Part shown: piece after piece, positions 12,041 to 32,870 of the stretch
Position numbering within the stretch: the stretch's first letter is position 1
How the letters are laid out: every line of letters starts with the position of its first letter
NCBI GenBank assembly: GCA_040751775.1
Contig: JBFMGD010000008.1
Span: 15,431-79,430 of the forward strand
Origin: Bacillota bacterium
Lineage (GTDB): Bacteria; Bacillota; Dethiobacteria; DTU022
Length of the DNA stretch: 64,000 nt
Reading direction: 5' to 3'
The notes under the pieces: model-generated
What the model was told of the DNA's origin: nothing
Databases searched by the model: none
The model's input: the letters and a program-made list of their open reading frames with translations, nothing else
Made by a program: the position numbers and the translations under genes

Positions 12041-12062
12041 CCATGAGATCTATAATTTAATC

Positions 12063-12215: not shown

Positions 12216-12229
12216 TGGTGGAGATCCCG

Positions 12230-12400: not shown

Positions 12401-12700
12401 TCAAACCTCCCCTTTCCGTAAAGTAGGCTTTATCGCGGGGCCGGGGCGCTCATCCGTTTTGCAGGATTTTACCGGGACGGCTCTCCCGGCGCGCCTAAGC
12501 TTTGCCGAGGAGCCGCCGGGCGTTCCCTCCGAGAATCCCTTCCTGATCTCATCGCTGAAAGGCCAGTGCTCCTTGATCTCGTCGATGCCGCGCTTCATGT
12601 CGAGCATCGGGGCGGCGGGTAACCCAACCCTGGATGTTCATACCGATGGCGCCCCATTTCCTGGCTTCGCGAAGCACCTCCACCGGGTCCGGGTCGACCT
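12401..12700 (-). pseudogene. Amidohydrolase-2 family fragments, paralogous to the intact gene at 62059–62922
   Basis: MLDMKRGIDEIKEHWPFSDEI… matches MLDMKRGIDEIREFWPLSDAV… at 62.9 kb. EVDPDPVEVLREARKWGAIGMNIQGW matches EVDPDPVAVLREARKWGAVGLNIQGW. There are internal deletions. Confidence 0.75.
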
Positions 12701-12757
12701 CACTATTTTATTGATTTATAACTGGTTCGCTTACGTCATACTACTGGTTGCTAAAAA

Positions 12758-12872
12758 AGAACCAATTATTCTTCCTGGACATAATATAAATCATGCTACA
12801 CGTTTTAGTGCAAAGTATAGATTATTCAAGGCTGACTCTATGACCGCTTCTTTCTTAATAATTTCATCATTG
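12758..12872. repeat. Direct repeat copy B (uninterrupted)
   Basis: See copy A. It ends 15 bp before the first glycosyltransferase gene. Confidence 0.75.
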
Positions 12873-12886
12873 TTGGTGATCAAGAT

Positions 12887-14080
12887 ATGAGTCGTTTAAC
12901 TCGGCCATCGATCTATGTTGTTACTCCCGGCACCTATCCAATACCGGCCAATCTGACCGGTTCTGTAGAGCTTTCGGTTATGCAGATATTCCCCTACCTA
13001 GCATCATCATATCAGGTTACTGTGATTGGGCGAAAGCAGCAGGGCGTCTTGCCTTCTTTAGATCATGTGGGATTGACGCGAAACCTTTATGTGTGCGGCG
13101 GAAAAGTTAATTTTGTCCAGATCCAGTCAACGATTAAGGATTACCCTGATCAATTGGCCCAACATCTTTCTCAGGGAATCAAATCAATTATTCACGTAGA
13201 AAACAGGCCCGCGTTGGTCAGTCGAATCAAAGAGCGCTACCCGCTATCTAAAATTTGGCTAAATTTGCACTCAATTACCTTTTTAGCGCCAGGCAAAAAT
13301 AATAACCATGATTTGGGTAATGCGCTTTCCCTTGCGGACAGAATTAGCGTGAACAGCGAGTTTTTGAAGCAGTATGTCTCTCATTTATTTCCCGCAATAC
13401 AACATAAAGTGTGGGTAAACTATCCTGGGGTCAACCATTTACATTATTTCCCTAGCTGTGAATCAAAAAATTATTTACGAAGAGGAACGGTTGCCGGTTT
13501 TTCTTCCCATGGACCGGTAATCCTTTATGTCGGCCGATTAAGGAAAATGAAAGGGGTTGATCACTTAATCAGGGCTTTCACCAGGGTCATCTCCGTTTAC
13601 CCATCTGCTCAGCTTTTAGTGATCGGGTCATCGGATTACACTGCTTATAAAGAATCAAGTTACACGCGGAGCCTGAAAATACTTGCTTCTTCATTGGGAT
13701 TGGAAAAGAACATCACCTTTAAGCCCCATACATCCGCCGATGAGCTGGTCAAGTGGTATCAGGTTAGCGATGTTTTTGTCTGTCCCTCGATTGTTAATGA
13801 AGCATTTGGGTTGGTTAACCTGGAAGCGATGTCATGTGGTATCCCGGTGATTGCATCTAAGATTGGTGGGATTCCGGAGGTAGTCGAGCACAATTATTCC
13901 GGTTTATTAGTCCCGCTTGATTACCATGAGGAGAGGTTGGCGGAAGCGATCCTCACTTTGGCCATGCATCCGGAGAGAGCCCGCCTTTTTGGGATGAACG
14001 GTCGTGTGAGAGTGCTTAATAAATTTACCTGGAAACACACGGCCGAGCGGTTAAAAAAGGACTATCAAGATCATTATTAA
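12887..14080 (+). CDS. GT4-family (GT-B) glycosyltransferase
   Basis: C-terminal EAFGLVNLEAMSCGIPVIASKIGGIPEVV (EX7E-type retaining GT4 motif). Confidence 0.85.
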   Translation: MSRLTRPSIYVVTPGTYPIPANLTGSVELSVMQIFPYLASSYQVTVIGRKQQGVLPSLDHVGLTRNLYVCGGKVNFVQIQSTIKDYPDQLAQHLSQGIKSIIHVENRPALVSRIKERYPLSKIWLNLHSITFLAPGKNNNHDLGNALSLADRISVNSEFLKQYVSHLFPAIQHKVWVNYPGVNHLHYFPSCESKNYLRRGTVAGFSSHGPVILYVGRLRKMKGVDHLIRAFTRVISVYPSAQLLVIGSSDYTAYKESSYTRSLKILASSLGLEKNITFKPHTSADELVKWYQVSDVFVCPSIVNEAFGLVNLEAMSCGIPVIASKIGGIPEVVEHNYSGLLVPLDYHEERLAEAILTLAMHPERARLFGMNGRVRVLNKFTWKHTAERLKKDYQDHY

Positions 14081-14110: not shown

Positions 14111-15679
14111 TTGATCAATGTGTCATTCTGTCATCAAAATATACCATTATACAGGCCGCGTTTATCTGTGGTTATACCGGCAAAAAACGAAGCAAAAACA
14201 ATAGAGAGAGTGATAATGGAAGCCGGATCAGTCACAGATAGTGCCGAAATTATAGTAGTCTGTAACGGCAGTAACGATCAGTCGGCCGACATGGCCCGGA
14301 AAAAGGGAGCCCGTATCATCTGGTGCGAAGAAGATCTTGGTTATGATGTAGGACGTGCTATCGGGGCCAAATATGCAAATGGGGAGATTATCCTTTTTCT
14401 TGACGCTGACTATGTTGTTCCGGCTTTAACTTTAAGAGAGCTTTATTTGGATGTAAAAAGGGGCTATGATGTTGTCTTAAATAAGTACTCGGGCTTTCGG
14501 TCCAGGGTAAAAATTCATGTCACCTCCCAGGCAAAGAGGCTGTTAAATAAATACCTGGCCAAGGACAATTTAATCGGTAGCTCCATGACCACCACCCCCC
14601 ATGCTCTCAGCAGGAGAGCCTTGGAAACGATCGGCTATCATGCCCTGGCCGTGCCACCTTTAGCTTTGGCGAAAGCGGCCCTAAATCAATTGAAGATCCA
14701 CCGTTCGGCCAGGATTGATGTCGGCCGGTTCAACAAACGAAAGCCGAATCGAGAAGAAGTAAAAGACTTAATCATGGGGGATCATGCTGAAGCCATCGCG
14801 TATCTGATCCGGAAGAAGGGGATCAGAGGAGGCTTTGCGGACTTCCAGCGGCACCGCGAGGTTCTTGATCTGATTGAGCATCATGTAACGAGAATCAATG
14901 ATCAAGATAATGGACGCGCAAACAATGACTGTTTAAATTTATCGGTAGTCATACCGGCGCTTAATGAAGAAAAAACAATCGGTCCTCTGATAACAAATCT
15001 CAAACAGTTGCGGCCCAAAGAAATTCTGGTTGTTGAAAATGGTTCCACGGACCAAACATTACGGGTTTGTTATAACCATGGTGTAAAGATTTTATCTTTT
15101 ACCAGCCCGCTTGGCCATGATGTCGGTAGAGCGATCGGCGCCAAAGAAGCAAAGGGAGATTATATCCTTTTTCTCGACGGCGATATTATTTTCACCCCGG
15201 AAGAGTTGAGACCCTATGTGAACTTTTCTAATTGCGGCGCCGATATTCTGTTGAATAATATTAACCCTTTTTTTATGCTGTCTTCCATGATTGATTATAT
15301 CAGTATGGCGAATGCTCTGCTTAACAGTGCTTTATCCTTGCCTCAGCTGCAGTATTCTTCACTTACCTCAATCCCCCATGTGATACGCCGGTCGGCTGTT
15401 AACCTAATCGGTTTTCAAAACCTTGCCGTTCCCCCCAAAGCACTGGCGATCGCCGTGCTAAAGGGACTGAAGATTCAGCAAGCGGCCGGAATTAACGTAC
15501 TGGTTAGAAACCCTGTCAGGGAGCACAACAGGCGCAAAAAAAATAAAATCGAGGAGCTAATCCTGGGAGACCACCTCGAAGCGATTGAGCATGTCCAATC
15601 AGTGATCGGGAATCGCTTATTCCTTCCGGATACCAATCGCCGGCGGTACTTGATCGATCATGAATGGAAGATAATGTAA
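14111..15679 (+). CDS. Tandem-duplicated GT-A glycosyltransferase (two GT2/GT81-like domains in one chain)
   Basis: The two halves align: LSVVIPAKNEAKTI…LGYDVGRAIGAKYANGEIILFLDADYV versus LSVVIPALNEEKTI…LGHDVGRAIGAKEAKGDYILFLDGDII, and LAVPPLALAKAALNQLKI versus LAVPPKALAIAVLKGLKI. Confidence 0.8.
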   Translation: MINVSFCHQNIPLYRPRLSVVIPAKNEAKTIERVIMEAGSVTDSAEIIVVCNGSNDQSADMARKKGARIIWCEEDLGYDVGRAIGAKYANGEIILFLDADYVVPALTLRELYLDVKRGYDVVLNKYSGFRSRVKIHVTSQAKRLLNKYLAKDNLIGSSMTTTPHALSRRALETIGYHALAVPPLALAKAALNQLKIHRSARIDVGRFNKRKPNREEVKDLIMGDHAEAIAYLIRKKGIRGGFADFQRHREVLDLIEHHVTRINDQDNGRANNDCLNLSVVIPALNEEKTIGPLITNLKQLRPKEILVVENGSTDQTLRVCYNHGVKILSFTSPLGHDVGRAIGAKEAKGDYILFLDGDIIFTPEELRPYVNFSNCGADILLNNINPFFMLSSMIDYISMANALLNSALSLPQLQYSSLTSIPHVIRRSAVNLIGFQNLAVPPKALAIAVLKGLKIQQAAGINVLVRNPVREHNRRKKNKIEELILGDHLEAIEHVQSVIGNRLFLPDTNRRRYLIDHEWKIM

Positions 15680-15885
15680 TCTAAATCGAAAAACTTGCTA
15701 CTAAGCATAGGCTTGTTAATTTGGCCTCATTGTCCAAGACGGCGTTTTTACATATTTTATTAGCACACCTTCTTTAATGCTTAATAAGATATATTGGAGC
15801 ATATCTCAGATATATCAACTGAATATATTTAGCAGTATAAACTCAGTTGGTTTAATTAACCAAGGTTAAAAAATGGAGAAATACA

Positions 15886-16812
15886 ATGAACAAAAAGAAA
15901 ATCCTTATTCTCGGTGTGGCCGGTATGCTGGGTCACGCATTGTTTGTCTATCTTTCCAAGCTAGATAATTTGGATGTTTATGGAACCGCCAGAAATATAA
16001 CCGGACTTTCAGGGTTATTTGGATCTGAGCTGATGAAAAAAATACAGGACAATGTGAATGCACATAATTTTGATTCAATTGTTCATATGATCGCCGAAAC
16101 TAAGCCGGATCTGGTCATTAACTGCATTGGTATGATCAAGCAAGTGCCCGCGGCTCGCGATAATATTGAGACAATTTCAATGAATGCGCTTTTACCGCAT
16201 CGGATTGCCAGGATTTGCGGCATTTCCGGGTCACGGTTGTTACAGATAAGCACTGATTGCGTGTTTGATGGTGTAACAGGATCCTACCATGAGAGCGACA
16301 CTCCCAACCCTACGGATCTCTATGGAAGAACGAAACTATTGGGTGAATTAAATGACGCGCATTGTCTCACCCTGCGCACATCGATCATCGGTCATGAACT
16401 TAAGGATAAACATGGACTGATCGAATGGTTCCTTGGACAACAAAGCAGGGTTCGCGGGTTTACAAATGCCATTTATTCCGGGTTCCCAACAGTTGAAATA
16501 GCGTGGATTATCGGTAAATATGTGATCCCGAACCCAAAATTGACCGGACTTTATCATCTATCTGCAGATGCAATTTCAAAATATGATCTGCTCAGATTAG
16601 TTGCCGTTCAGTATAACAAACAAATTGAAATCGAACCTTGCAACGATTTTCATCTGGATCGGTCACTTGATTCTACCTTGTTCCGGCAGGTTACCGGTTA
16701 TAGCTCCCCTCCATGGCCTGAACTCGTCTCTAAAATGTACCAAGATTATATGACAGCGCCACACTATCAAAAAACCAGTTATTGGAAGAGGAACAAAGAA
16801 GTTGCTATTTGA
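15886..16812 (+). CDS. NAD(P)-dependent sugar-nucleotide reductase/epimerase (RmlD-substrate-binding-like; FnlB/CapF-role candidate)
   Basis: ILILGVAGMLGHALF Rossmann motif and extended SDR fold. Sits in a trio with a CapD-type dehydratase and a 2-epimerase. Confidence 0.7.
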   Translation: MNKKKILILGVAGMLGHALFVYLSKLDNLDVYGTARNITGLSGLFGSELMKKIQDNVNAHNFDSIVHMIAETKPDLVINCIGMIKQVPAARDNIETISMNALLPHRIARICGISGSRLLQISTDCVFDGVTGSYHESDTPNPTDLYGRTKLLGELNDAHCLTLRTSIIGHELKDKHGLIEWFLGQQSRVRGFTNAIYSGFPTVEIAWIIGKYVIPNPKLTGLYHLSADAISKYDLLRLVAVQYNKQIEIEPCNDFHLDRSLDSTLFRQVTGYSSPPWPELVSKMYQDYMTAPHYQKTSYWKRNKEVAI

Positions 16813-17860
16813 GAATAAAGTAATCGTCATTACGGGAGGAACCGGGTCTTTAGGGAAGGTGCTGACCCGCCGTTTACTGTTAAATGAATATGGATGTCCC
16901 AAAAAGATCATTATTTTCTCCAGGGACGAAGCAAAACAGCATTTTATGCGTATCGAGTACGAAAAAAGTAAGAAAGCCACGGACGAAGTAATTTACCGCA
17001 ATTTTGAGCGCTTGCTCGAATTCAGGATTGGTGATATCCGCAATTACCACTCTGTCTGTTCGGTACTGAAAGGGGCGGACATTGTAATCAATGCGGCTGC
17101 CCTTAAACAGGTTCCTTCCTGTGAATACTTTACTTATGAAGCCGTGCTGACTAATATTATCGGCGCCCAAAACATTGTGTCGGCCATAAGTGAAAATAAT
17201 CTTGAAATAGAAACGGTAATCGGGGTTTCTACCGATAAAGCCTGCAAGCCGGTCAATGTGATGGGAATGTGCAAGGCTTTGCAAGAACGGGTTTTTATTG
17301 CCGCGAATATTACAATCCCGGGAACCCGTTTTATTTGTGTGCGTTACGGTAATGTTCTCGCTTCCCGTGGCTCCGTAATACCTTTATTTCACGAACAAAT
17401 ATTGCATGGTGGCCCTGTTACCATTACGACAAAAGAGATGACCCGTTTCTTGTTGCCGCTGGAACAGGCTGTGGATACTATTTTTACCGCGATCAAAACA
17501 GCTAATCCCGGTGAGATATATGTTCCCAAGGTTCCTGCGGCAAGAATTGTTGATGTGGCGAAAGGGCTCATCAATAACCGTGAAATAGAGATCGTCTATA
17601 CGGGCATTCGTCCCGGGGAAAAAGTACATGAAATCTTGGTTTCCGATGAAGAAGCCTGGCGAACATTAGTATATGGAGAATATTACATTATCACATCGAT
17701 GCTTCCGGAACTGGCCAAGAAAGAATCAGGTTTACAGGCTTTAAACAAAGAATACAGTTCAGAAAATTCTTTAATGACATTTGAGGAGACCGTGCATCTT
17801 TTAGAGAAGCATCACTTGATGATCGGTCAGGAGATCAAAGAAGAGGAGTTCTTGTCATGA
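16802..17860 (+). CDS. UDP-GlcNAc 4,6-dehydratase, CapD/FnlA/PseB-like
   Basis: KVIVITGGTGSLGKVL N-terminus and polysaccharide-biosynthesis CapD-like fold. Overlaps the upstream gene, consistent with an operon. Confidence 0.8.
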   Translation: MLFENKVIVITGGTGSLGKVLTRRLLLNEYGCPKKIIIFSRDEAKQHFMRIEYEKSKKATDEVIYRNFERLLEFRIGDIRNYHSVCSVLKGADIVINAAALKQVPSCEYFTYEAVLTNIIGAQNIVSAISENNLEIETVIGVSTDKACKPVNVMGMCKALQERVFIAANITIPGTRFICVRYGNVLASRGSVIPLFHEQILHGGPVTITTKEMTRFLLPLEQAVDTIFTAIKTANPGEIYVPKVPAARIVDVAKGLINNREIEIVYTGIRPGEKVHEILVSDEEAWRTLVYGEYYIITSMLPELAKKESGLQALNKEYSSENSLMTFEETVHLLEKHHLMIGQEIKEEEFLS

Positions 17861-18942
17861 AGGTGCTGACGGTTTTAGGGACCCGCCCGGAAATAATTCG
17901 CCTGAGCCGGATCATGCCGGTTCTCGATCGCCTTTGTGACCACGTTGTGGTAAATACCGGCCAGAACTACGACCGGAATCTTAATGCCATCTTTTTTGCG
18001 GAACTGGGCTTGAGACAACCTGACTATATTTTAGCTTGCCAGTGCAAGAGTCCAATTGAACAGATCTGCACAATCCTTGAGGGCTGTGAAAAGGTCATGC
18101 TAAAGGAGCAACCGGATCGGCTCTTGATTCTAGGTGACACCAATAGTACCCTGTCGGCCATGGCCGCCAAAAGAATGGGTATCCCGGTCTTCCATATGGA
18201 GGCCGGCAATCGCTGTTACGACGATCGCGTTCCGGAGGAAGTAAACCGCCGCATCGTTGATCACTGTAGCGATATCTTAATGCCTTATACCGAGCGGAGT
18301 AGAGCCAACCTTATTCGGGAAGGGATTGCCGGTCAGCGGATTTATGTAACCGGCAATCCGATTATGGAAGTTCTGACCTATTATGCCCGGAGGATTGAAG
18401 AAAGCCGGGCTTTACATAAACTTGGTTTGGAGACTAAAAAGTTTTTTTTGGTGACCCTGCACCGGGCAGAGAATGTCGATCTGGAAGAGCGTCTCACTCA
18501 ATTTATCAAAGCGTTCCAACTCTTGAATGCCGAATATCAAATACCGGTGATTTGCAGTCTTCATCCGAGGACGCGATCACAACTCATGAAACGGGGTCAG
18601 ACGCTGGGTGGTGCAGGGATTCGGACTGTTGAACCTCTGGGATTATTTGATTTTGTGCATCTGGAAAAGAGCGCTTTTTGTGTTTTAAGTGACAGCGGGA
18701 CCGTCCAGGAAGAGTGCTGTATTTTGAAAATCCCTAATGTAACGCTGCGGGATGTTACCGAGCGGCCTGAGACGGTTGAAGTCGGCAGTAATATTGTTGC
18801 GGGCTGTGCACCGGAGGCCATCGTAGGGGCTGTAAAAACAGTCCTGGACCGGCCTGGCGATTGGGAACCGCCTCATGAATATTTGGCCGGGAGTGTCAGT
18901 AGCACTGTGGTCAAAATTGTCCTGGGGAATGCTTTGGTTTGA
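17857..18942 (+). CDS. UDP-N-acetylglucosamine 2-epimerase-family enzyme (FnlC/CapG-like)
   Basis: MKVLTVLGTRPEIIRLS…HMEAGNRCYDD… is a WecB-fold epimerase. Its pairing with the CapD and reductase genes suggests the UDP-L-FucNAc / 6-deoxy-L-HexNAc route. Confidence 0.8.
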   Translation: MKVLTVLGTRPEIIRLSRIMPVLDRLCDHVVVNTGQNYDRNLNAIFFAELGLRQPDYILACQCKSPIEQICTILEGCEKVMLKEQPDRLLILGDTNSTLSAMAAKRMGIPVFHMEAGNRCYDDRVPEEVNRRIVDHCSDILMPYTERSRANLIREGIAGQRIYVTGNPIMEVLTYYARRIEESRALHKLGLETKKFFLVTLHRAENVDLEERLTQFIKAFQLLNAEYQIPVICSLHPRTRSQLMKRGQTLGGAGIRTVEPLGLFDFVHLEKSAFCVLSDSGTVQEECCILKIPNVTLRDVTERPETVEVGSNIVAGCAPEAIVGAVKTVLDRPGDWEPPHEYLAGSVSSTVVKIVLGNALV

Positions 18943-18983: not shown

Positions 18984-19820
18984 GTGCAGAAGCAGCCGCA
19001 GAATCAAAATAGGCCGTTTATTTTTGCGGGAAAGTATGATTTATCTTACCTCGTTTTCCCCGATTCCGCCATAGACCAGGATGTGGTGAGAGAGGGCGTT
19101 TACAGTGACTGGACAATACAGCTGCTGAGCCAGTTCCTGCCGGAAAACAGCATTATCCTGGATATTGGAGCAAATATCGGGGGGCTTGCGCTACCGCTAG
19201 CTAAAATGGTAGCTCCTCAGGGCGTTGTTTATGCTTTTGAGCCGGACTTCCAGAATGTAAGCCAACTGCAGATCAATAAGGAGCTGAATCAACTGGACAA
19301 TGTCGTGGTCCTGCCATTGGTTCTGCAGGATGATGCCCAGGTCGCAATGGTTTCCCTGTATATCAGGCGATCCACCGATCAAGAGGGGTTGGTAAATCGG
19401 GGGTTGTCAACCATTTTATGGATGCCGACCGATTATGTCCGAAAGGAAAGAGCCTTCTCCTCGACCATAGATGCCCAGGTCTGGGAACAACGGATCACGA
19501 AAGTTGATCTGATCAAGATCGATGTCGAGGGAGCCGAATTGAATGTCCTGCAGGGCGGTCACCGGACAATTGCCGGGCACCACCCGATCATCCTTTATGA
19601 GTTTTCCTCGGTCATTGATCATATGGCCAGCACTAACAACAGCGCTCAGGCTTATTATTATCTGAAAGAGATGGGATACAGGCAGTATGAAATGGCGAAG
19701 GGCTGGCTCCTGACAGAGATAAATAAACTTGACCGGGACTTCCCGTTAGTAAATATTCTCTGTTTTCATGAATCCAATTTACCGGAATCCTTGAAAACAC
19801 ATCGACTGAAGGGCGGATAA
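18984..19820 (+). CDS. FkbM-family SAM-dependent methyltransferase
   Basis: DIGANIGGLALPLAK…AFEPDFQN…KIDVEGAELNVLQG are FkbM/Methyltransf_21 hallmarks. Confidence 0.8.
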   Translation: MQKQPQNQNRPFIFAGKYDLSYLVFPDSAIDQDVVREGVYSDWTIQLLSQFLPENSIILDIGANIGGLALPLAKMVAPQGVVYAFEPDFQNVSQLQINKELNQLDNVVVLPLVLQDDAQVAMVSLYIRRSTDQEGLVNRGLSTILWMPTDYVRKERAFSSTIDAQVWEQRITKVDLIKIDVEGAELNVLQGGHRTIAGHHPIILYEFSSVIDHMASTNNSAQAYYYLKEMGYRQYEMAKGWLLTEINKLDRDFPLVNILCFHESNLPESLKTHRLKGG

Positions 19821-19824
19821 GTGT

Positions 19825-20589
19825 ATGAACTGCAAGGTATCAATTTTAATTACGACATTTCAGAGACCGCACTTATTAAAGTGGGGGCTGTATTCTTTGG
19901 CCAGACAATACATTCCGTTTACATTTGAAACCCTGGTGATCAATGACGGAGTTAATGATGAAACTGAAGAAATATGTCATAAATATCTGCGAAAGCTCAA
20001 TTTAAAATATCTATTTTCCGGGCAAAGAAATTTAAATGGCGCAATTGAGTGGCGAGTCCCCGGTTTTGCTTTTAATATCGGGGCAAAACAGTCTTTAGGA
20101 AAAGTCTTGATTTTGAGCTGCGCCGAAATGTTTCATCTAAATGACACTGTTTCAAAACTGGCTTATCCCGTATTGAAAAACCCGAACTTACTGGGCATAC
20201 CCGTTGGCAAATCCGACCGGGACGGTATTTTCCTTAACCATCTTAATGAGCACAACGGCCGCTTTACCCCCGCCTTATTTGAGCAACTGCCGGCATTGGA
20301 CGTCCGGCTTCCCTATTTGCTGTCTGTAAGCCGTAGCCAATATAATGCCATCGGGGGATATGATGAGGACTTCACCGGGGTAGCGGCTGAGGACAGCGAT
20401 CTTGTTGACAGGCTGCGGCTAAACGGATGCGGCTATTTTCAAACCAAAGCGGAAACCGTCCATTTATACCACCCGCGTCATTTGGGCGGCACGGAGCACC
20501 ATCCGGCCGTGCAGTATAACCGAAATCTTTATTATACCAGACAAGGCCGGATAGTTAGGAACGAAAAGAGGGAATGGGGTAAGCTATGA
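19825..20589 (+). CDS. Small GT-A glycosyltransferase (module A)
   Basis: VSILITTFQRPHLLKWGLYSLARQ…VINDGVNDETEE… It is paralogous to the C-terminal half of the 23422–25026 protein. Confidence 0.7.
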   Translation: MNCKVSILITTFQRPHLLKWGLYSLARQYIPFTFETLVINDGVNDETEEICHKYLRKLNLKYLFSGQRNLNGAIEWRVPGFAFNIGAKQSLGKVLILSCAEMFHLNDTVSKLAYPVLKNPNLLGIPVGKSDRDGIFLNHLNEHNGRFTPALFEQLPALDVRLPYLLSVSRSQYNAIGGYDEDFTGVAAEDSDLVDRLRLNGCGYFQTKAETVHLYHPRHLGGTEHHPAVQYNRNLYYTRQGRIVRNEKREWGKL

Positions 20590-23432
20590 AATGGCATTTA
20601 AGGAGAATACCCCGCGTCGTTCATTTTTACTGGGGTAATGATACGATTTCATTTTTGAGATACCTCTCTGTTTTCTCGTTTAGACTGTATAACCCGGATT
20701 GGATCATCAAGCTGTACTACCCCAAAACAAAGTTCCGGGGTGCAAAAACCTGGGCCACGCGAGAGCGCTACGGCAAATTCAAAGGGAAAAACTATATCGA
20801 TAAACTCTTTGGCCTGGATGTAGAAAAGATCGAAGTTGATTTTGGGGAAATCGGGTTCGCCAGTGACGTACCTGAAAATTACAAGGCCGATTTTTTACGA
20901 TGGAGAATTTTATCCTTTGAGGGGGGTCTATGGTCCGATATTGATATTATCTATTTTAAACCGGTGGCAGACCTGTATTTCAATCAAGAGGTGAATAAAG
21001 ATACAGAGCTGTGTGTCTGTATAAACGAATATCAAAACAATTCCGTCGGTTTTTTATTGGCGGCGCCGGGAAACGGATTGTGTAAATTTGTTCATGCGCA
21101 ATCTTTTACAAGGTTAAACCTCCAGGATTATCAAAGCATGGGGCCGCTCATCCTTGATGCCTATTTCCCAACTGTCGCTTCCATTAAGGAAAAATTCCCC
21201 GCATTGAACGTATTTAACTTTAAAATGGCAGTGGTCTACCCGGTTCATGACGATCCGCCGCGTAATTGGTGGGCTTCTTCAATTTTTCAGGGCAGCGATC
21301 TATCCCGGATTACAGATGATACGATCGGACTACACTGGTACGCCGGGCACCCTGACGCGGACGAATGGGAAGATAAATTAACAGAAAACAATTTTCACAA
21401 GTTTGATAATGTCCTGGTAAAGGTTATCGGAGAGGTAATGAGGGAGGAGGATCGGAAAAAGTACTCTATCGTCTGCACTTGTAAAATATTCAATGAGCTG
21501 CGCAAGGGCAATTTGGAGCGCTTTGTGCGGCACATCAAGCCGTTGGTGGATGCCCTGGTGGTCTATGACGACGGCAGTACCGACGGGAGTTTTGAATATA
21601 TGCTGCAACACACCCCCTATGTCATCCGCGGCAGTAAAAATGATTTCCTGCATGAGCGGGTCCATAGGCAGATGCTGCTCGATCAGGCGCTTGCACTCTC
21701 ACCCGATTTTATTCTGTGGCTTGACGCGGATGAAGTGCTGACGGCCAACGCCGCTGAAAAATTACAGGAACTCTGTGCCTACTGTGATCAGAACCGTATC
21801 GACGGCCTTAAATTACACGAACTGAATATTTGGCGCAGCCGGACCTGGCGGAGAATTGACAGCCTCTTTAATGATGGGTGGTTCACCCGCCTGTGGCGGG
21901 TTGCTCCCGGTATGATTTATGAGAATATCCATAACCCGGGGCTTCATCAATCGCAATGTCCTTCGACAATACGCGTTATCGAGCCAACGCATGAAATCAA
22001 GGTGCTGCATTACGGTTTTTCTTCCAGGAAGAACCTGGCCTACAAATACCTGGTCTACCGCTCTCACGGTCAGCGCGGTTATGAAATGCTTGACCGGTTA
22101 ATCAGTGAAGAACAGCTCGTATTGGAAAAGGTGCCGCGGGATTTTTTTCCGGCGGAACTGTGGGCCGATGAAGAGCCTCCCCAACCGCTACCCTTTTTGG
22201 AATCGCTGCGTTTCGTGGAAGAACACCGGGAAGAGGTGTTTGGCCCGAAATTCTCGATCATCTGTCCCATAGCTAAAAGTATCGACTGGTTAAAGTTTAT
22301 CTATGAACAGATATTTAAATATACCGATATGACCGACAAGGAGTTTTTCTTTGTCGCCGGCGATGCCAATGAAGCTGTTCTGGCATACCTGCGTGACCGC
22401 TATATCCCGCATTGTATTTTGAAAAACAAGCCTTTGCCGGAAACCGCGCCTACCGGCGGCAACGTTTACCGGGCTTATAACTATGGCGGCAGTAAAGCAA
22501 GAGGGGATTTCCTTGTTTTGATCCATTCCGATATGGCCTTTGCTCCCGGCTGGTTTGATCATCTGATTAAGGCTTATGATGGCGCCAACTGGATCTCGTC
22601 CCGTGTGATCGAGCCGGGCCGGGCGGTAAGCGGGGGGCACGGGTTGATTAAAGATTTCGGCCGCGATCTCCGTTCGTATCAAGAGCCGGCATTCCTACGC
22701 TATGTCTCGGAGACAGCCCTGCCGAAAATCGAAAACAGGGGCGAGTTTATACCGCTTTTGATCCGAAAAGATCATTTTAACCTGGTCGGCGGTTATCCCG
22801 AGGGAGATATCGTTCCGGGCAGCGACATCTTTCAGCCGGTTATGGCCCAAAAAGGAGAACCGTCCATTACCGGTTACGCGGTGTTGCAGCTGAGGCTGGC
22901 CGCAAAGGGGATCAGGCACCAAACCGCCTTTGACAGCCTGATCTACCATTTCCATGGCGGCGAAGCAAAAGAGCCCGAATCGGCGGAAATCCTTCCGGAG
23001 AAAACCAGGATCGCCCTATGCAATGTTGCTCTACCCGGGTCCCTGCCTGCCTCTGTTCAGGTTGACCCGGGCGTTGCCGGGGGCAATGAGGATTATGCCG
23101 GAGCGGCGCGTGAATATATTGACCGGAACCACCCGGAGACCACCGTGATCATTCAGGATGCGACTTCTTCTGAAATCGTTGATCCGTCACGCTATACCAT
23201 CGCCTTATTAAAGGATAACCTGCGCCCCGCAGGATGCCCGCCGGAACGGCAGGAGAACAATTTACGGCTGGCCCGCAAACTGGTTGCCCACTCACTCGCC
23301 ACCGCCCGGTCTTATCCCGAATATGATTTTGAGATTATTCCGGAAGACGCTTCCATCGATCAGTGGATAGGGCTGCTTACCAGGGTTATCCAGGAGATCA
23401 AGATGAGGAAAGGAGAGAAAAATGGTGGATAA
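20586..23432 (+). CDS. 948-aa triple-domain glycosyltransferase: Gly_transf_sug (DXD) + GT2 + GT2-like module D + C-terminal tail
   Basis: ADFLRWRILSFEGGLWSDIDIIY (PF04488-type DXD). DALVVYDDGSTDGS…WLDADEVL (GT2). YRAYNYGGSKARGDFLVLIHSDMAFAPGW (module D). Confidence 0.75.
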   Translation: MKWHLRRIPRVVHFYWGNDTISFLRYLSVFSFRLYNPDWIIKLYYPKTKFRGAKTWATRERYGKFKGKNYIDKLFGLDVEKIEVDFGEIGFASDVPENYKADFLRWRILSFEGGLWSDIDIIYFKPVADLYFNQEVNKDTELCVCINEYQNNSVGFLLAAPGNGLCKFVHAQSFTRLNLQDYQSMGPLILDAYFPTVASIKEKFPALNVFNFKMAVVYPVHDDPPRNWWASSIFQGSDLSRITDDTIGLHWYAGHPDADEWEDKLTENNFHKFDNVLVKVIGEVMREEDRKKYSIVCTCKIFNELRKGNLERFVRHIKPLVDALVVYDDGSTDGSFEYMLQHTPYVIRGSKNDFLHERVHRQMLLDQALALSPDFILWLDADEVLTANAAEKLQELCAYCDQNRIDGLKLHELNIWRSRTWRRIDSLFNDGWFTRLWRVAPGMIYENIHNPGLHQSQCPSTIRVIEPTHEIKVLHYGFSSRKNLAYKYLVYRSHGQRGYEMLDRLISEEQLVLEKVPRDFFPAELWADEEPPQPLPFLESLRFVEEHREEVFGPKFSIICPIAKSIDWLKFIYEQIFKYTDMTDKEFFFVAGDANEAVLAYLRDRYIPHCILKNKPLPETAPTGGNVYRAYNYGGSKARGDFLVLIHSDMAFAPGWFDHLIKAYDGANWISSRVIEPGRAVSGGHGLIKDFGRDLRSYQEPAFLRYVSETALPKIENRGEFIPLLIRKDHFNLVGGYPEGDIVPGSDIFQPVMAQKGEPSITGYAVLQLRLAAKGIRHQTAFDSLIYHFHGGEAKEPESAEILPEKTRIALCNVALPGSLPASVQVDPGVAGGNEDYAGAAREYIDRNHPETTVIIQDATSSEIVDPSRYTIALLKDNLRPAGCPPERQENNLRLARKLVAHSLATARSYPEYDFEIIPEDASIDQWIGLLTRVIQEIKMRKGEKNGG

Positions 23433-25026
23433 TCCCGGTATTTCGATCATCTGTCCGATCGACAAAAGTGTTGCGCTGCTAAAGTTTGTCTATAAACAGG
23501 TATTAAAATATACCGATTTGGCGGACAAAGAATTTTTTTTTGTCGTCACCGGCGCCGGTGACGCCGTCCTGACTTACCTGCGGGATCACTATATTCCTCA
23601 CTATGTCATGGAAAAAACACCCGAACAGAAAACAGAATGGTATATCAACAGTGTTTACCGCGCCTATAATTTTGGAGCGCGTAAAGCACGGGGAAATTTT
23701 TTTCTTTTCATCCATTCCGATATGGCTTTTAATCCGGGCTGGTTGGACAATTTGCTTAAAGCATATAACGGCGCCAACTGTATCACACCCCGCTTAGTTG
23801 AATCGGGAAAGCTGCCCAGCGGGCAGTACGCCATTGCCAAAGATTTCGGCCGCCATCCAAGTTTGTTCAGGAAGTATGATTTTCTGCAATATGTGCCGGA
23901 GATTGCTTTACCCGAAGTGGCGGAGGGAGGGTCGTATATACCGCTCCTGATTCGCCAAGAACATTTTGATCTGGCCGGCGGTTATCCCGAAGGCAATCCT
24001 CTTTCCGGTAGTGACCTTTTTCAACCGGTGATTGCCCGCGAGGGTGAGCCGTACCATGTCGGTTACGAGGTTTTCAGGCGAAAACTGGCCCTGCAGGGGA
24101 TCACGCATCAAACCGTTTTCAGCAGTGTCGTTTATCATTTTCAGCGCGGGGAGACGGATGAGCCGGAAACCACACAAACCCCATCCGGTAAAAAAAAGGC
24201 TTTAAATAATCTTATTGCGGTTGGAATAAACAAGTATCTCGGTAGAAATACAGCGCGGAAAAGGAATTGCCAAGTATCAATTTTGATCTCCACCTTTCAA
24301 CGGCCGCATTTGTTAAAGTGGGGGCTGTATTCGTTGGCCAAACAGGATATTCCGCTTAAATTTGAAACGATCGTGATCAACGACGGCGTGGATGACGAAA
24401 CCGAAGCAATATGTGAAGAATACCGGGAAAAACTTAATTTAACCTACTTGTTTACAGGGCAAAGGAACCTTGACGGTGCGATCAAGTGGAGGGTGCCGGG
24501 GTTTTCTTTAAATATCGGAGCGAAACAGTCAACAGGAAAATTCCTGGTGATCGCCTGTTCGGAGATGTTTCACTTGAACGACACGATCGTCAAGTTAATC
24601 AACCCTTTGCGGAAAAATCCCGACTTTCTGGGCATACCCGTCGGGAAGGATGATACGGACGGCTCTTTTCTCCGGTATATCCAGGAACACGGCGGGAATT
24701 ATGACCAGGAGATGTTTGAAAGCTGCGCCGCGTTGAATGTTCAGCTGCCGTTTTTACTGTCGGTGAGCCGTAAACATTTTTTTGCCATCGGCGGGTATGA
24801 CGAAGACTTTACCGGGATAGCGTATGACGACAACGACCTGGTCCAGAGATTGCAAATAAATGGGTGCAGTTATGTACAGACGGAAGCGAAAACCGTGCAC
24901 TTGTTTCATCCGCGCTGCTGGATCGGCCGGGAGGTAGACCCCGGGTTCCTGTTCAATAAAAACCTTTTTTTTATGAAAAAAGGGAAAGTGGTCCGGAATA
25001 TCAACAGAGAGTGGGGTATACGATAA
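23422..25026 (+). CDS. 534-aa dual-domain glycosyltransferase (module D' + module A')
   Basis: The N-terminal half is paralogous to residues ~550–790 of the 948-aa protein. The C-terminal half is paralogous to the 254-aa GT at 19825. Confidence 0.75.
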   Translation: MVDNPGISIICPIDKSVALLKFVYKQVLKYTDLADKEFFFVVTGAGDAVLTYLRDHYIPHYVMEKTPEQKTEWYINSVYRAYNFGARKARGNFFLFIHSDMAFNPGWLDNLLKAYNGANCITPRLVESGKLPSGQYAIAKDFGRHPSLFRKYDFLQYVPEIALPEVAEGGSYIPLLIRQEHFDLAGGYPEGNPLSGSDLFQPVIAREGEPYHVGYEVFRRKLALQGITHQTVFSSVVYHFQRGETDEPETTQTPSGKKKALNNLIAVGINKYLGRNTARKRNCQVSILISTFQRPHLLKWGLYSLAKQDIPLKFETIVINDGVDDETEAICEEYREKLNLTYLFTGQRNLDGAIKWRVPGFSLNIGAKQSTGKFLVIACSEMFHLNDTIVKLINPLRKNPDFLGIPVGKDDTDGSFLRYIQEHGGNYDQEMFESCAALNVQLPFLLSVSRKHFFAIGGYDEDFTGIAYDDNDLVQRLQINGCSYVQTEAKTVHLFHPRCWIGREVDPGFLFNKNLFFMKKGKVVRNINREWGIR

Positions 25027-25971: not shown

Positions 25972-25986
25972 CCTAACCTCCTCATG

Positions 25987-27138
25987 TCAACCCTCCTCCC
26001 GGATACCGAAGTCCGGCGGGCGGGTTTTCAGGATTCCGAAATAATGAAAAATAGAGTCGCGGATGCGTTTGGAGGCCTGCCCGTCTCCGTACGGGTTAAC
26101 CGCCCGTGCCATGGCCAGGTAGGTTTTCCTGTTATCCAGAAGCTCCCGGGCGGCGTGGTAGATATCTTGTTGCCGGGTACCCACCAGGCGCACCGTTCCG
26201 GCGGTTATCGCCTCGGGACGTTCGGTAACCTCCCGCAATACCAGCACCGGCCGTCCCAACGCGGGAGCTTCTTCCTGGATGCCTCCCGAATCGGTGAGGA
26301 CAAGGTAACAGCGCGCCATCAGGTTATGAAAGGTAATCGTATCCAGGGGCTCCAGGAGCAGCACCTTCGGGCATTCACCCAGCGCTTTACGTACCGGATC
26401 CCGCACCGCGGGGTTGCGGTGTACGGGAAAAACCAGGTGGTATCCGCTGTCTTTCACCAGCCGCCGCAGGGCGGCACAGATCTCCTCCAGGGAGCGGCCC
26501 CAGCTTTCCCGGCGGTGCACCTCCGCCAGCAGGACCGGCTCGGTGAAATCGAGGGCTTGCAGTCGAGCGTCGCGGAAGCGGAAATCACGCCGCACTGTAG
26601 TCTTCAAGGCATCAATGACGGTGTTGCCGGTGACATAGATCTGTTCCGCCGGGATCCCTTCCCGCAGCAGGTTCTCCCGGGCCCCGGCGGTCGGCGCGAA
26701 GTGCAGGTCTGCCAGAGTCGCGGTAAGGCGGCGGTTAATCTCCTCGGGGAAGGGGCTGTCTTTGCGTCCGGTACGCAGCCCGGCCTCCACGTGTCCGACG
26801 GGACATCGCCGGTAAAAGGCGGCCAGGGCGGCGGTAAAGGTGGTGGTAGTATCGCCGTGAACCAGGACCAGGTCCGGGGCGGCAACAATGATCACTTCTT
26901 CCAGGCCGGCCAGTGAACGGCAGGTAATATCGCTCAGGCTTTGCCGCGGGCGCATCAGGTCCAGATCGTAATCGGGAGAGATGTCGAAAATGTCCAGGAC
27001 CTGATCGAGCATCTCCCGATGCTGTGCGGTAACAGCCACCAGGGCGTTGAACCGCGGGGTATTACGCAGCAGTTTCACCAGAGGCGCCATCTTGATCGCT
27101 TCCGGGCGAGTTCCGAAGATAAAGAGTACCGCCGGCAT
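25987..27138 (-). CDS. wecB: Non-hydrolysing UDP-GlcNAc 2-epimerase (WecB/MnaA type)
   Basis: MPAVLFIFGTRPEAIKMAPLV…HVEAGLRTG…VTGNTVIDAL. Confidence 0.85.
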   Translation of the reverse strand: MPAVLFIFGTRPEAIKMAPLVKLLRNTPRFNALVAVTAQHREMLDQVLDIFDISPDYDLDLMRPRQSLSDITCRSLAGLEEVIIVAAPDLVLVHGDTTTTFTAALAAFYRRCPVGHVEAGLRTGRKDSPFPEEINRRLTATLADLHFAPTAGARENLLREGIPAEQIYVTGNTVIDALKTTVRRDFRFRDARLQALDFTEPVLLAEVHRRESWGRSLEEICAALRRLVKDSGYHLVFPVHRNPAVRDPVRKALGECPKVLLLEPLDTITFHNLMARCYLVLTDSGGIQEEAPALGRPVLVLREVTERPEAITAGTVRLVGTRQQDIYHAARELLDNRKTYLAMARAVNPYGDGQASKRIRDSIFHYFGILKTRPPDFGIREEG

Positions 27139-29266: not shown

Positions 29267-30046
29267 TTAATATTTATTTAGGAGTTCATCAATCAGATCA
29301 TTTTTATCCGGGGTTTTCCGCCAGTTGGAACCGTTGCAGGTGTGCAGCCAGTCCCCGGTATATTCGATAAAATTATCTACCTGCGGATCATCGCCTTCCC
29401 TTAACCGGACATAGTGCGGCGCCAGCGGCACCAGTATGGTCCTGTCAAAATCCTGATAAAGGGAACGCCAGTTCCCGCCGCCGGTATCACAACCGTACCC
29501 CGGCATAAAATTCACTTTCTTGTTTTTGACATAATCGTATTTAAAAAAACAGAGACCGGGGTGCAGGTACCACCTGAAACCTTGGCCGGGGACGATCCTG
29601 CTTTGGGTAAGGCCGTAAAGAGTGGTTTCCTGTAAAATTTTCCTTATTTTAATCGGCCGGACCGGGTAAATATCATGATCCAGAAAACCGAAGAAGTCTG
29701 CTTTTCTCTTATGGAAATAATTCTTGTAAATCCAGTTCAAAGCAAAACCATGCGATAAACTGGAATTGATTCTTTTGCAGGGAATCCCGGGCAGCCTGAT
29801 ATAGGCGGTATCGAGTTCCCGGCACAGCCGCATGATTTTTTCCTGTTTGAGCGGGTCGGTTGAATTGTCGGCAACGGTATAGGCGTAAGGATCAAGAAAA
29901 TACTTTTTCAACAACCTGATTTGGTGAGCGATCACCAGTTCATTGTTGAAAGCAATTGTGGCGATATCGACCAAATTTGCGTCGGCCGGCGGTTTATCGT
30001 CGCAGTTGAAATGCAAAACATCGTCCAGGGTTAACCGAAAATACAT
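29267..30046 (-). CDS. Hypothetical protein, possible DXD-containing nucleotide-sugar transferase
   Basis: Has a DHD motif (FFGFLDHDIYP) and a GT-A-like hydrophobicity pattern. No firm family assignment. Confidence 0.35.
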   Translation of the reverse strand: MYFRLTLDDVLHFNCDDKPPADANLVDIATIAFNNELVIAHQIRLLKKYFLDPYAYTVADNSTDPLKQEKIMRLCRELDTAYIRLPGIPCKRINSSLSHGFALNWIYKNYFHKRKADFFGFLDHDIYPVRPIKIRKILQETTLYGLTQSRIVPGQGFRWYLHPGLCFFKYDYVKNKKVNFMPGYGCDTGGGNWRSLYQDFDRTILVPLAPHYVRLREGDDPQVDNFIEYTGDWLHTCNGSNWRKTPDKNDLIDELLNKY

Positions 30047-31239: not shown

Positions 31240-32870
31240 GGCTGCCTCCTGTATTTTTCCAGCAATTTCTGTATATAGGCAAACTCACGCTCATACCAGG
31301 ATACGGGAACGGAACCGTCGTACCCGCCCGGTTGGAAATGCGTACTCGCTTCAATCATCTCTTTCAGGCAGGCGCTGTCCAGGCCCTGGTATTCCTGAAG
31401 CCGGTTTACCCAGTAGCGGTAGGTTTCGCCAGCATCGGCCACTTCTCGCCGGGTGCGGGAAAGAGCCCTGGTGCTTAGCGCAAAATGGAAGACCAATCCG
31501 CCGATATTCTGGCCGAAAGCGCCGTCACGCGGGGTGAGCCCGATATAGCTGGTCAGCGGGATGTTAAACTTGGGTCCGAGACGGTTGATGTCGATAAAAT
31601 GGTTGGCCGCCACACCGCTGTCGCACCCGGAGAGGTACGGCTCCCGGCCGGAGACGCCGGAAGCCCTGGTAAACCCGATCGTCTCGGAAACCACCTTGGC
31701 CAGCGCCGTGGGCATGATCCGGTAGAGGTTGTTGGTGCAGGTGAAGACCTCGTTGTCGAAAATACCGCCGTTGGTCCAGTAGCCGATCCATTTCCCCGCG
31801 TAGGTCTGCCACCAGGTATTGATCTGATCCTGGGAAAGGTATGGAACGGACAGCCCCGTATCCAGGCCTACGGAGCTACAGCCGTATGTTTCCAGGAGCC
31901 GGATGGGGAAGGCCAGCCAGTCTTGGCTCAGCGGGAAGAGGTCGGCGTCAATGGCCGCCACGTACTGTTCCTTGACCAGTTTCAAACCATAATCAAGAAG
32001 CAACCCGATATCGGGTTCATGTTTGTTCGGCCTGTCAATGCGGTGGAACTCTATCCCCGGATCACCTTTAAACGCCTCCATCGCCTTTTCAAAACTGCCG
32101 TCGGCACTGGCATCATCCAAAACATAAACTTTTTCGTTTAAGTTTTCATGACGGTTCTGCCGGATCGTCTCCAGGCACGGCTTTAGGAACGGCCAGCTTT
32201 CCCAGTGGGGCAGCAGGACGGCAATCGAGCGGGGATGATCGCGGGCGTCGAGCGTAAAGCCCAGGACGCGGATATGCTTATATTCCTCTTTTATTTGCTG
32301 GCTGAACTCTTTTAACACCGGCGAGGTTGACCTGAGGGTATCGGGAGGGAGGAGCGGGATCCGGACACCCAGGAACTCTTCCAGCTCTCTGAGCCGGTAA
32401 AGAGGCACGCCAAGGGTGTCACTGACATCCATGGTGATCACCACCCGGTAACGGGCCAGGCGGATCATTTCATTAATCACCGCGCACAAGTCCGGCATCT
32501 CTTCCACCGCCGACACGCTGAAGACATAATCAAAGGAGTTGTCGGCAAAGGTTACTTTGGCTGCGTCGCACACGACCAGCTTCTCTGCCGGCCACTTTCC
32601 CGCGTGCAGCGGGTGATCGACTTCATTTAAATTCCGGCAGTCAACAGATATCGTATTGGGGAAATTGGGAAATAAGACGAATGGATATGTCCCCCCGACA
32701 TCCAGGGCTTTACCCGACGAAGGGATGCGGGAAGCCACGTAGGGGTATTCCCAGATCCTTTGCCAGAAGTAATCGGGAAGCGTATTTTGTTTGTTCCAGT
32801 TAATCCACAACGGCAAGCGCAGGTCATTACTGTTGGCCCAGCGGATATCGCTGACGGTCCAGTTTTTCAT
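31236..32870 (-). CDS. Bifunctional class-I SAM methyltransferase / GT2-like glycosyltransferase fusion
   Basis: N-terminal half has ALDVGGTYP (motif I) and FDYVFSVSAVEEMPD. C-terminal half has YVLDDASADGS…IDADLFP (GT-A). Confidence 0.7.
   Translation of the reverse strand: MKNWTVSDIRWANSNDLRLPLWINWNKQNTLPDYFWQRIWEYPYVASRIPSSGKALDVGGTYPFVLFPNFPNTISVDCRNLNEVDHPLHAGKWPAEKLVVCDAAKVTFADNSFDYVFSVSAVEEMPDLCAVINEMIRLARYRVVITMDVSDTLGVPLYRLRELEEFLGVRIPLLPPDTLRSTSPVLKEFSQQIKEEYKHIRVLGFTLDARDHPRSIAVLLPHWESWPFLKPCLETIRQNRHENLNEKVYVLDDASADGSFEKAMEAFKGDPGIEFHRIDRPNKHEPDIGLLLDYGLKLVKEQYVAAIDADLFPLSQDWLAFPIRLLETYGCSSVGLDTGLSVPYLSQDQINTWWQTYAGKWIGYWTNGGIFDNEVFTCTNNLYRIMPTALAKVVSETIGFTRASGVSGREPYLSGCDSGVAANHFIDINRLGPKFNIPLTSYIGLTPRDGAFGQNIGGLVFHFALSTRALSRTRREVADAGETYRYWVNRLQEYQGLDSACLKEMIEASTHFQPGGYDGSVPVSWYEREFAYIQKLLEKYRRQP

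Follow-up and report, generated by a model that had tools for sequence, protein, structure and literature searches.

Probable ancient duplication and reshuffling of glycosyltransferase modules in a sugar gene island of a Bacillota bacterium

Introduction

How do three adjacent genes come to carry two pairs of related glycosyltransferase (GT) domains, and what kind of glycan could such an arrangement build? The question is raised by a stretch of 64,000 nucleotides from a Bacillota bacterium (GenBank assembly GCA_040751775.1, contig JBFMGD010000008.1, positions 15,431 to 79,430 of the forward strand), which we call the window. Three consecutive genes of the window, here g1, g2 and g3, encode the modules A (g1), X-M-D-Ct (g2) and D'-A' (g3), where A' and D' denote the paralogues of A and D. 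An initial annotation, made from the sequence alone, had read these genes as the result of a tandem duplication of a two-gene unit followed by gene fusions, and as a plausible route to a repeating or alternating glycan.

The explanation that we favor, with a probability of about 0.65, is an ancient duplication of an M-D-...-A unit whose modules were later reshuffled, and which would now serve the stepwise assembly of a glycan in the cytoplasm, beside a pathway for a 6-deoxy-L-N-acetylhexosamine (6-deoxy-L-HexNAc). Multidomain GTs and the shuffling of modules in glycan loci are already well known, and the basic finding is therefore unsurprising.

Paralogous modules in g1, g2 and g3

Together, the three plus-strand genes span exactly the interval named in the initial annotation, 19825-25026. 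In BLASTP comparisons, g1 aligned without gaps to residues 282-532 of g3 (A') with 65% identity and 81% positives over 251 aa (E 7e-126), and residues 554-818 of g2 (D) aligned to residues 5-268 of g3 (D') with 53% identity over 265 aa (E 1e-93). Both relationships had been proposed on the strength of short peptides, which do lie within these alignments. Pairwise protein comparison of g1 with g2 gave no significant similarity. At the DNA level, identity was 69% over 657 nt for A/A' and 68% over 743 nt for D/D', and these were the sole long matches when the region 19825-25026 was compared with itself. Since the alignments span whole domains, the similarity is not confined to generic GT2 motifs, the alternative that the initial annotation had set beforehand against its own proposal. 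The two module pairs are genuine but ancient duplicates, with similarity far above chance. Recent gene conversion between the paralogues was considered and rejected, because DNA identity stays at 68-69% throughout, without a tract of high identity.

The description of the three genes as encoding six GT-A-type domains also proved correct (Table 1). In Pfam, A, M, A' and D' reach the PF00535 gathering cut-off of 23.3 bits, and D is marginal, just below it (21.5). X is a weak GT32-type domain (PF04488, 20.6 bits versus a cut-off of 23), for which precomputed PF04488 and/or PF05704 assignments exist in 15 of 41 homologues; its matches in the PDB, all weak, are a toxin GT (4mix; PaToxG) and an Och1-type mannosyltransferase. 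A PDB sequence search gave weak matches of A' to K4CP and TarS, and nothing useful for g2 overall or for its 915-aa homologue P0027. NCBIfam contains no equivalog for g1-g3. The modules thus belong to an uncharacterized family for which there is neither a curated equivalog nor a solved structure.

Structure prediction with AlphaFold2 (AF2) from alignments of homologues gave four folded blocks for g2 at a predicted local distance difference test score (pLDDT) of 84.2, with X mostly above 90 and D as a confident alpha/beta fold. The g3 model scored 80.9, with values of about 90-97 in D'. Both models show alternating beta and alpha elements. When the two models were compared with the PDB by Foldseek, all top matches were GT-A enzymes (probability 1.00), led in both cases by the dual GT-A enzymes K4CP, LARGE1, PmHS2 and CHSY3-CHPF.

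A seventh block, Ct, had been overlooked. It is vestigial and lies beside the six GT-A modules. Alone it has no Pfam match, and the donor-binding C-terminal half of a GT-B fold (PF00534) is absent from g2; the assignment of Ct as the N-terminal half of a GT-B domain, which homologues have complete, is based on its position relative to PF00534 in these homologues. In M-D-Ct-GT1 proteins of about 900 aa, PF00534 follows a segment with 37-55% identity to Ct, and homologues of about 1091 aa likewise have PF00534 just after a Ct-like segment. AF2 predicts a beta-alpha-beta pattern for Ct, with pLDDT 50-88.

Table 1. Coordinates of the module genes, their domains and junctions, and the directly neighboring genes (aa, amino acids; ORF, open reading frame).
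Feature	Position	Strand	Basis or remark
RmlD-like reductase, CapD/FnlA/PseB-like 4,6-dehydratase and WecB-type 2-epimerase	15886-18942	+	Pfam, NCBIfam
FkbM-family methyltransferase	18984-19820	+	PF05050 67 bits, TIGR01444 95 bits; directly upstream of g1
g1 (module A)	19825-20589	+	ORF, 254 aa
A, GT2-type GT-A, Glyco_transf_7C-like C-terminal part	19825-20589	+	PF00535 37.2 bits, PF02709 31.9 bits
g1/g2 stop/start overlap ATGA	20586-20589	+	sequence
g2 (X-M-D-Ct)	20586-23432	+	ORF, 948 aa
X, GT32-like GT-A (g2 residues 1-290)	20586-21455	+	DXD is DID in GGLWSDIDII
M, canonical GT2 (g2 residues 291-548)	21456-22229	+	PF00535 40.6 bits, PF13704 35.9 bits; DXD is DAD (380-382)
D, divergent GT-A (g2 residues 549-800), paralogue of D'	22230-22985	+	Pfam GT2 21.5 bits, below cut-off
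Ct, half GT-B (GT4-type), Rossmann-like remnant (g2 residues 801-948)	22986-23432	+	homology
Shine-Dalgarno-like AAGGAGAG	23410-23417	+	within the 3' end of g2; 6 nt separate it from the g3 ATG
g3 (D'-A')	23422-25026	+	ORF, 534 aa
D', GT-A (g3 residues 1-262), paralogue of D	23422-24207	+	Pfam GT2 27.1 bits, alone
Linker D'/A', predicted disordered (g3 residues 246-280)	24157-24261	+	pLDDT <50
A', GT2-type GT-A (g3 residues 279-534), paralogue of A	24256-25026	+	PF00535 69.8 bits
Single-domain GT2, 306 aa	25051-25971	+	ends the plus-strand block; conserved downstream of the module genes in L001-L003

The three genes overlap at their ends, g1 and g2 by the four nucleotides given in Table 1 and g2 and g3 by 11 nt (23422-23432), which suggests translational coupling. 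The possibility that g2 and g3 are a single gene broken by a sequencing frameshift was rejected, because g3 is equipped with a Shine-Dalgarno sequence and an ATG of its own, and because its orthologue in the related locus L001 (see below) also starts at this domain boundary, behind a spacer of 120 bp.

Module architectures in related genomes

Three syntenic loci from related metagenome-assembled genomes, L001, L002 and L003, lie as in the window between the 2-epimerase gene upstream and the single-domain GT2 gene downstream. L002 encodes A-X-M-D-Ct as one protein of 1204 aa and M'-D'-A' as another of 776 aa, where M' is the second copy of M. In L003, M'-D'-A' (757 aa) is accompanied by a free X (287 aa). 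L001, on contig JAGUZX010000027.1, is the nearest relative of the window (80-86% identity) and holds a 36-aa remnant of A, a free X of 298 aa and a D'-A' protein of 534 aa; it is without most of A, all of M-D-Ct and a 522-aa double-GT2 gene that lies upstream in the window, of which the first ~20 and last 27 codons remain (L001 ~4480-4634). This contig is labeled 'Desulfovibrio sp. isolate DeMMO6_25'. Its genes and their closest homologues are those of Bacillota (Peptococcaceae/Desulfosporosinus-like), and the label or the binning is probably wrong.

The boundary between A and X differs between the window, where the two are encoded separately, and L002, where they are fused. The window reads ...AAGCTATGAAATGG..., the L002 orthologue reads in frame ...AGGCTGGATACATGG..., and the two versions are a 1-nt indel apart.

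In Desulfosporosinus and other Peptococcaceae, a single protein contains either M-D-Ct-A (~930 aa) or M-D-full GT-B-A (~1091 aa), as exemplified by D. meridiei CP003629 (1093 aa, P0142) and Peptococcaceae BRH_c4a (927 aa, P0006). These proteins resemble the window in M, D, Ct and A, at 56-67% identity, and in having the same RmlD-like and CapD-like genes upstream. They carry each module once, in one polypeptide, whereas the window spreads the modules over three genes, with an additional X, D' and A', with M' lost and with the GT-B domain halved. Syntrophomonadaceae have separate genes, either MTase-M-D and A (MTase, methyltransferase) or X, M-D-C, A and A, and a Halanaerobiales metagenome-assembled genome has A, A and X as separate genes. 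M-D-GT-B proteins of about 900 aa are encoded in many phyla.

The order M-D is a nearly constant feature. M lies directly upstream of D in 103 of 114 D-bearing matches, and an exhaustive search placed D at residues ~260-520, right after M, in nearly all close relatives. The D family is small: of 1.84 billion proteins searched, 505 representative clusters reach E <= 1e-3, and 90 reach E <= 1e-30. X behaves differently from the other modules: all 41 matches of a search with the X domain were without M, D and A, and 39 of them were proteins of 164-332 aa. A genome scan was also carried out with an alignment of six A-module sequences, the patterns of which missed Desulfosporosinus genomes.

Trees were built by neighbor-joining only, with a numpy implementation, using 200 (A) or 100 (D, M) bootstrap replicates. 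The A module of the window grouped with the upstream A of L002 in 199/200 replicates, and A' of the window with the A' modules of L001, L002 and L003 in 163/200. The two A copies of the window were sisters in 0/200 replicates and the two D copies in 0/100. In the M tree, M of the window and L002 came together in 97/100 replicates, and M' of L002 and L003 in 96/100. D' is 61-63% identical to the D modules of L002 or Syntrophomonadaceae, versus 53-55% to the neighboring D, and with pS at 0.65-0.78 the paralogues have reached saturation at synonymous sites. The separate clades of A and A' orthologues, together with the saturated synonymous sites, indicate that the duplication is older than the divergence of the window and the related genomes. 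The intact M'-D'-A' proteins of L002 and L003 suggest what was duplicated, probably an M-D-...-A cassette in an ancestor of the lineage, and also that g3 is an M'-D'-A' protein truncated by the loss of M' rather than a new D'-A' fusion. The start codon of g3 sits at the M'/D' domain boundary of the relatives.

These comparisons leave little room for a recent, local tandem duplication of an A gene and a D gene followed by D'-A' and upstream-D fusions, which we regard as very improbable. Fusion and fission do occur in this family, as the initial annotation supposed; the history that it proposed is not supported as it stands. Separate, adjacent A and (M-)D genes in Syntrophomonadaceae make a split ancestor with later fusion conceivable, and paralogy over whole domains fits a tandem duplication as well. 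However, the modules are in mirrored order (A ... D / D'-A') rather than in tandem, and A and A' fall into clades of their own and never pair, just as D' is nearer to a foreign D than to D. The unit was hardly a pair of genes, given that relatives keep M'-D'-A' intact, that L002 has all of A-X-M-D-Ct in one protein and that M nearly always precedes D. By the same token g3 would be a product of truncation, and the fusion specific to the lineage is not that of D' with A' but that of X with M-D-Ct, X being free of M, D and A in all of its 41 matches.

We propose the following course of events for the ancient cassette duplication. M' would have been deleted from the second cassette copy in the ancestor that the window shares with L001, leaving D'-A' as g3. 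The C-terminal half of the GT-B domain would have been lost, or may have been absent beforehand. In the lineages of the window and L002, the normally free-standing X would have become fused onto M-D-Ct, and the A|X boundary could have toggled between fused and split by the 1-nt indel. L001 would later have suffered its deletions of A, M-D-Ct and the upstream double GT2, and the D-Ct-D'-A' center would have diverged faster than the remaining island or been replaced in part by recombination. Fusion, splitting and deletion of such modules are ordinary evolution for a surface-sugar gene cluster.

Several observations weigh against this history. In the D tree, all relevant bootstraps are at or below 29%, which is too low to establish a single duplication of the M-D-A cassette for D; the two D copies could go back to different sources, horizontal acquisition being an example. 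Likewise, the upstream A and A' modules formed a clade in only 15/200 replicates, so that either A copy may have a closer paralogue than the other. At A|X the change may have been a fusion or a fission, and the ancestral state of M-D/A may have been fused or split.

The center of the locus is also a mosaic. In a comparison of the window with L002, the backbone genes of the island have 70-81% identity; the value is 72% for g1 against the N-terminal module of the 1204-aa protein, 69% for X and 77% for M. Identity is lower in D (56%) and Ct (47%), as it is in D' (63%), in A' (64%) and in the GT2 gene downstream (61%). Along g2, identity to the positional L002 orthologue steps down from 65-88% to 43-58% at g2 residue ~590. 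The drop could stem from segment replacement, from gene conversion in L002 or from fast evolution. If recombination had put the D-Ct of a Desulfosporosinus-like M-D-Ct allele in place of the original one, D and D' of the window would be xenologous and not paralogous. The abrupt step in identity fits such an event, as do the closer similarity of the window D to Desulfosporosinus-type D (up to 64%) than to the D of L002 and the grouping of these last two in only 1/100 bootstraps. Yet the best donor found reaches no more than 64%, and at three conserved columns D and D' carry the same rare substitution (H647/H98, I722/I173, Y764/Y215). Rate acceleration, or conversion of the L002 D by its neighbor D', would explain the same pattern, and we consider the swap rather unlikely.

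Conserved residues and selection

Are all modules of the ancient duplication likely to be active enzymes? Columns were counted as conserved at 95% or more, which gave 83 in the A family (56 A modules), 63 in D and 58 in M. M keeps 58/58, A 81/83 and A' 83/83. D and D' each deviate at about 10/63 columns. The DXD position, canonical in M and X, reads SDM in D/D' and AEM or SEM in A/A'. Because of these non-DXD motifs and of the D deviations, activity of D and A is assumed, and this counts against our interpretation. The variants are 98-100% conserved within their families, which makes them the family norm, and D retains D649, M650, E676, YPEG, H778, YHF and GE, with the core motifs present in both D and D'.

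The ratio of nonsynonymous to synonymous substitution rates (dN/dS) between the window and L001 was calculated for X, D' and A', as L001 has no intact D and A. The values, 0.19 for X, 0.16 for D' and 0.17 for A', lie within the range of neighboring genes (0.14-0.24), and these three modules are thus under ordinary purifying selection.

CHPF, the partner in CHSY-CHPF, is a pseudo-glycosyltransferase. By analogy, one copy of each pair in the window could be a dead enzyme that serves as a scaffold or as an acceptor-binding partner, with the vestigial Ct as a further case. Some of the D/D' deviations are near the nucleotide-binding N-terminus, D and A are without a canonical DXD, Ct has lost half its fold, and D-Ct evolves fast. 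We nevertheless find this improbable, considering that SDM and AEM are the normal state of their families, that both A copies hold essentially all conserved residues and both D copies the core motifs, and that the dN/dS of D' and A' equals that of neighboring enzymes.

Sugar pathway and possible product

The module genes are part of an island of about 28 kb (~12.9-40.4 kb) that contains at least 12 further GT domains, several (3-4) methyltransferases, two UDP-N-acetylglucosamine (UDP-GlcNAc) 2-epimerases and an rml set. Directly upstream of the FkbM-family methyltransferase gene lies the trio of reductase, dehydratase and epimerase genes (PF02719 292.8 bits, PF04321 99.7 bits, and TIGR00236 (wecB) 271.7 bits versus a cut-off of 210). 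The dehydratase and the reductase score below the equivalog cut-offs for FnlA (249.6 versus 730), PseB (300.2 versus 407.75) and rmlD (95 versus 224). L001-L003 have the trio immediately before their module genes, and so does Ca. Syntrophocurvum alkaliphilum with its minimal cassette of five genes; D. meridiei has the RmlD-like and CapD-like genes upstream of its module gene, and the epimerase is absent there. The toolkit of X, M-D and A recurs, in many fusion states, beside the pathway from UDP-GlcNAc to a UDP-6-deoxy-L-HexNAc in anaerobic, mostly spore-forming Bacillota.

The WbvB/WbvR/WbvD route leads to UDP-N-acetyl-L-quinovosamine (UDP-L-QuiNAc) via UDP-N-acetyl-L-rhamnosamine (UDP-L-RhaNAc) (PMC6765297). 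The same three enzyme types, with the dehydratase belonging to Polysacc_synt_2, are combined in one block in V. cholerae O37 and the Rickettsia pso locus (PMC6765297) and in the window. The correspondence is limited by the scores of the window dehydratase, which fall short of the FnlA and PseB equivalog cut-offs, and the product sugar is presumably of the L-RhaNAc/L-QuiNAc type. The comparative series amounts to Rosetta-stone evidence for X, M, D and A acting in one pathway with such a sugar. It also defines clean expression boundaries for an unstudied small GT family with conserved non-DXD motifs.

Each module would add one sugar, and the paralogues may have diverged in donor or acceptor specificity and so give related linkages. 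The product could be a heteroglycan that includes a sugar of the L-RhaNAc/L-QuiNAc type. It would be assembled in the cytoplasm, with a protein or some other non-lipid molecule as acceptor, possibly for the spore surface, and assembly may be stepwise or partly repetitive. Among the ORFs of the island, Pfam identified no flippase, polymerase, ABC exporter or initiating phosphoglycosyltransferase, which may be located elsewhere in the genome. No island ORF had more than one transmembrane-like segment, and single borderline segments were mostly in dinucleotide-binding enzymes.

An alternating glycan from dual GT-A modules is possible, as the predicted folds resemble K4CP and LARGE1. Taken literally, g3, and perhaps also M-D of g2, would be a processive copolymerase of the type of K4CP, PmHS2 or LARGE1 whose two GT-A sites add two different sugars in turn and so yield a long alternating polysaccharide; the other cassette would produce a further polymer or a primer. 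K4CP/KfoC of E. coli, PmHS2 of P. multocida and human LARGE1 do have two GT-A domains in one soluble polypeptide, and these dual GT-A polymerases are the best structural matches (K4CP E 4e-20, ~560 aligned columns). D and A co-occur and have been fused repeatedly across taxa, and the minimal cassette of Ca. Syntrophocurvum has M-D and A alone beside sugar genes. Against this, only individual domains superpose, whole chains giving a template modeling (TM) score of 0.29-0.34 and a root-mean-square deviation of about 19-20 Å; the geometry between the domains either differs or is left undefined by the disordered linker. There is no real sequence homology either, the phmmer match to K4CP (35.9 bits) covering residues 284-343 of g3 only, with none for D' or g2. 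The window enzymes moreover have SDM/AEM in place of DXD, and g2 has three GT-A domains plus half a GT-B. The island, with its 12 or more additional GT domains and 3-4 methyltransferases, fits a complex glycan made stepwise better, and it has no machinery for chain length or export. We therefore hold a processive copolymerase to be unlikely.

A more general form of this idea would make M-D-(GT-B)-A a membrane-independent 'assembly-line' GT family that makes polymers containing 6-deoxy-L-HexNAc in the cytoplasm of spore-forming anaerobic Bacillota, for instance for the spore surface, and in which D-A pairs would be K4CP-like alternating copolymerases with SDM/AEM sites. We offer it as a speculation that is unlikely to hold. 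If it did, the fusions, fissions and deletions in the window and its relatives would form a natural series in which a glycan is rewired module by module.

WbdA and WbbB are multi-enzyme polymerases of ABC-transporter-dependent O-antigen or capsule pathways, which have undecaprenyl-linked acceptors, Wzm/Wzt-type exporters and an initiating transferase. Like the locus studied here, these systems have several fused GT modules, shuffling between serotypes and a hypervariable center in a conserved locus; unlike them, the island yielded neither an exporter nor an initiating transferase. The system is of the familiar multidomain GT2/GT-A kind and is not a sequence member of K4CP/PmHS2/LARGE1, and the island is without the components that define Wzy- or ABC-dependent pathways.

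Relation to the spore surface

In L003, two genes for CotS/YutH-type kinases (Spore_coat_YutH/APH), flanked by two GT4 genes, lie directly upstream of the sugar and module genes (L003 1935-6471), and L001 has a YheCD ATP-grasp gene near the locus. The L003 block resembles the cotSA-cotS arrangement of B. subtilis and is, by this analogy, the main hint that the island may serve the spore surface. The sps, cotSA-cotS and cge loci of B. subtilis are spore-surface glycan loci. In these loci, as in the island, many soluble GTs are clustered with rhamnose (rml) genes and methyltransferases, and export genes are absent; CotS/YutH-type and YheCD-type genes adjoin the syntenic loci. In contrast to this general likeness, g1-g3 showed no orthology to Sps or Cge proteins, and spore genes are absent or decayed in the window. 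The link comes from neighbors in the related loci L003 and L001, the window itself holding just a 42-aa YheCD remnant, and this has to be set against a spore-surface role. Glycosylation of CgeA is documented (PMC13577073). A literature search for spore glycosyltransferases in Desulfosporosinus returned nothing relevant. If the island decorates the spores of Desulfotomaculia-like bacteria, it would offer one of the first ways to study the glycans of the spore surface in bacteria other than Bacilli and Clostridia.

In Ca. Syntrophocurvum alkaliphilum (CP046457; L059 19493-19909), an A_ENA endospore-appendage gene is located about 7 kb from the minimal cassette of sugar genes, MTase-M-D and A. 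Directly upstream of this cassette are ORFs of 471, 780 and >1322 aa without a Pfam match, which could be candidate acceptors.

Other features of the island

Gas-vesicle genes (GvpA-like, GvpK and a GvpN-like AAA gene) adjoin the related islands at L001 15-1641, L002 1217-1444 and L003 1-514. A tblastn search of the window gave no gvpA homologue. The left edge of the island, 9990-12890, is gene debris. It includes the YheCD ATP-grasp remnant (10271-10396), fragmented ORFs resembling flavin adenine dinucleotide (FAD) oxidoreductases (10406-11043, minus strand), a truncated NagB-like ORF (11501-12040, profile positions 69-217) and a fragment similar to enoyl-CoA hydratase (12149-12400).

Another internal duplication in the operon is seen in the 522-aa protein encoded upstream at 14111-15679 (plus strand), which has two tandem GT2 domains (Pfam, residues 16-110 and 278-404). 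At 36100-38076 (plus strand), an RmlB-type dTDP-glucose 4,6-dehydratase is fused to an RmlA-type glucose-1-phosphate thymidylyltransferase in a protein of 658 aa; in L002 the RmlB-type and RmlA-type genes are separate (361 and 291 aa).

The two UDP-GlcNAc 2-epimerase genes are at 17857-18942 (plus strand) and 25987-27138 (minus strand). They are only distantly related, judging by the 30-34% identity of the second gene to the orthologues that the first has in L001-L003. A plus-strand ORF of 310 aa (25984-26916) is the antisense shadow of the second epimerase. Three conserved minus-strand ORFs of 259, 281 and 313 aa (29267-30046, 32867-33712 and 33794-34735) are without a Pfam family, and those of 259 and 281 aa have orthologues of 58-78% identity in the related loci.

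Finally, a conserved AT-rich intergenic element precedes the RmlD-like gene (15886), at ~15745-15800 in the window and ~4660-4720 in L001. It reads GTTTTT..ATA.TTTATTAG.ACA..TTCTTTAAT.CTTAATA.GATATAT and may be a promoter; the window copy contains a CATAnnnTA string, similar to a sigma-K -10 element.

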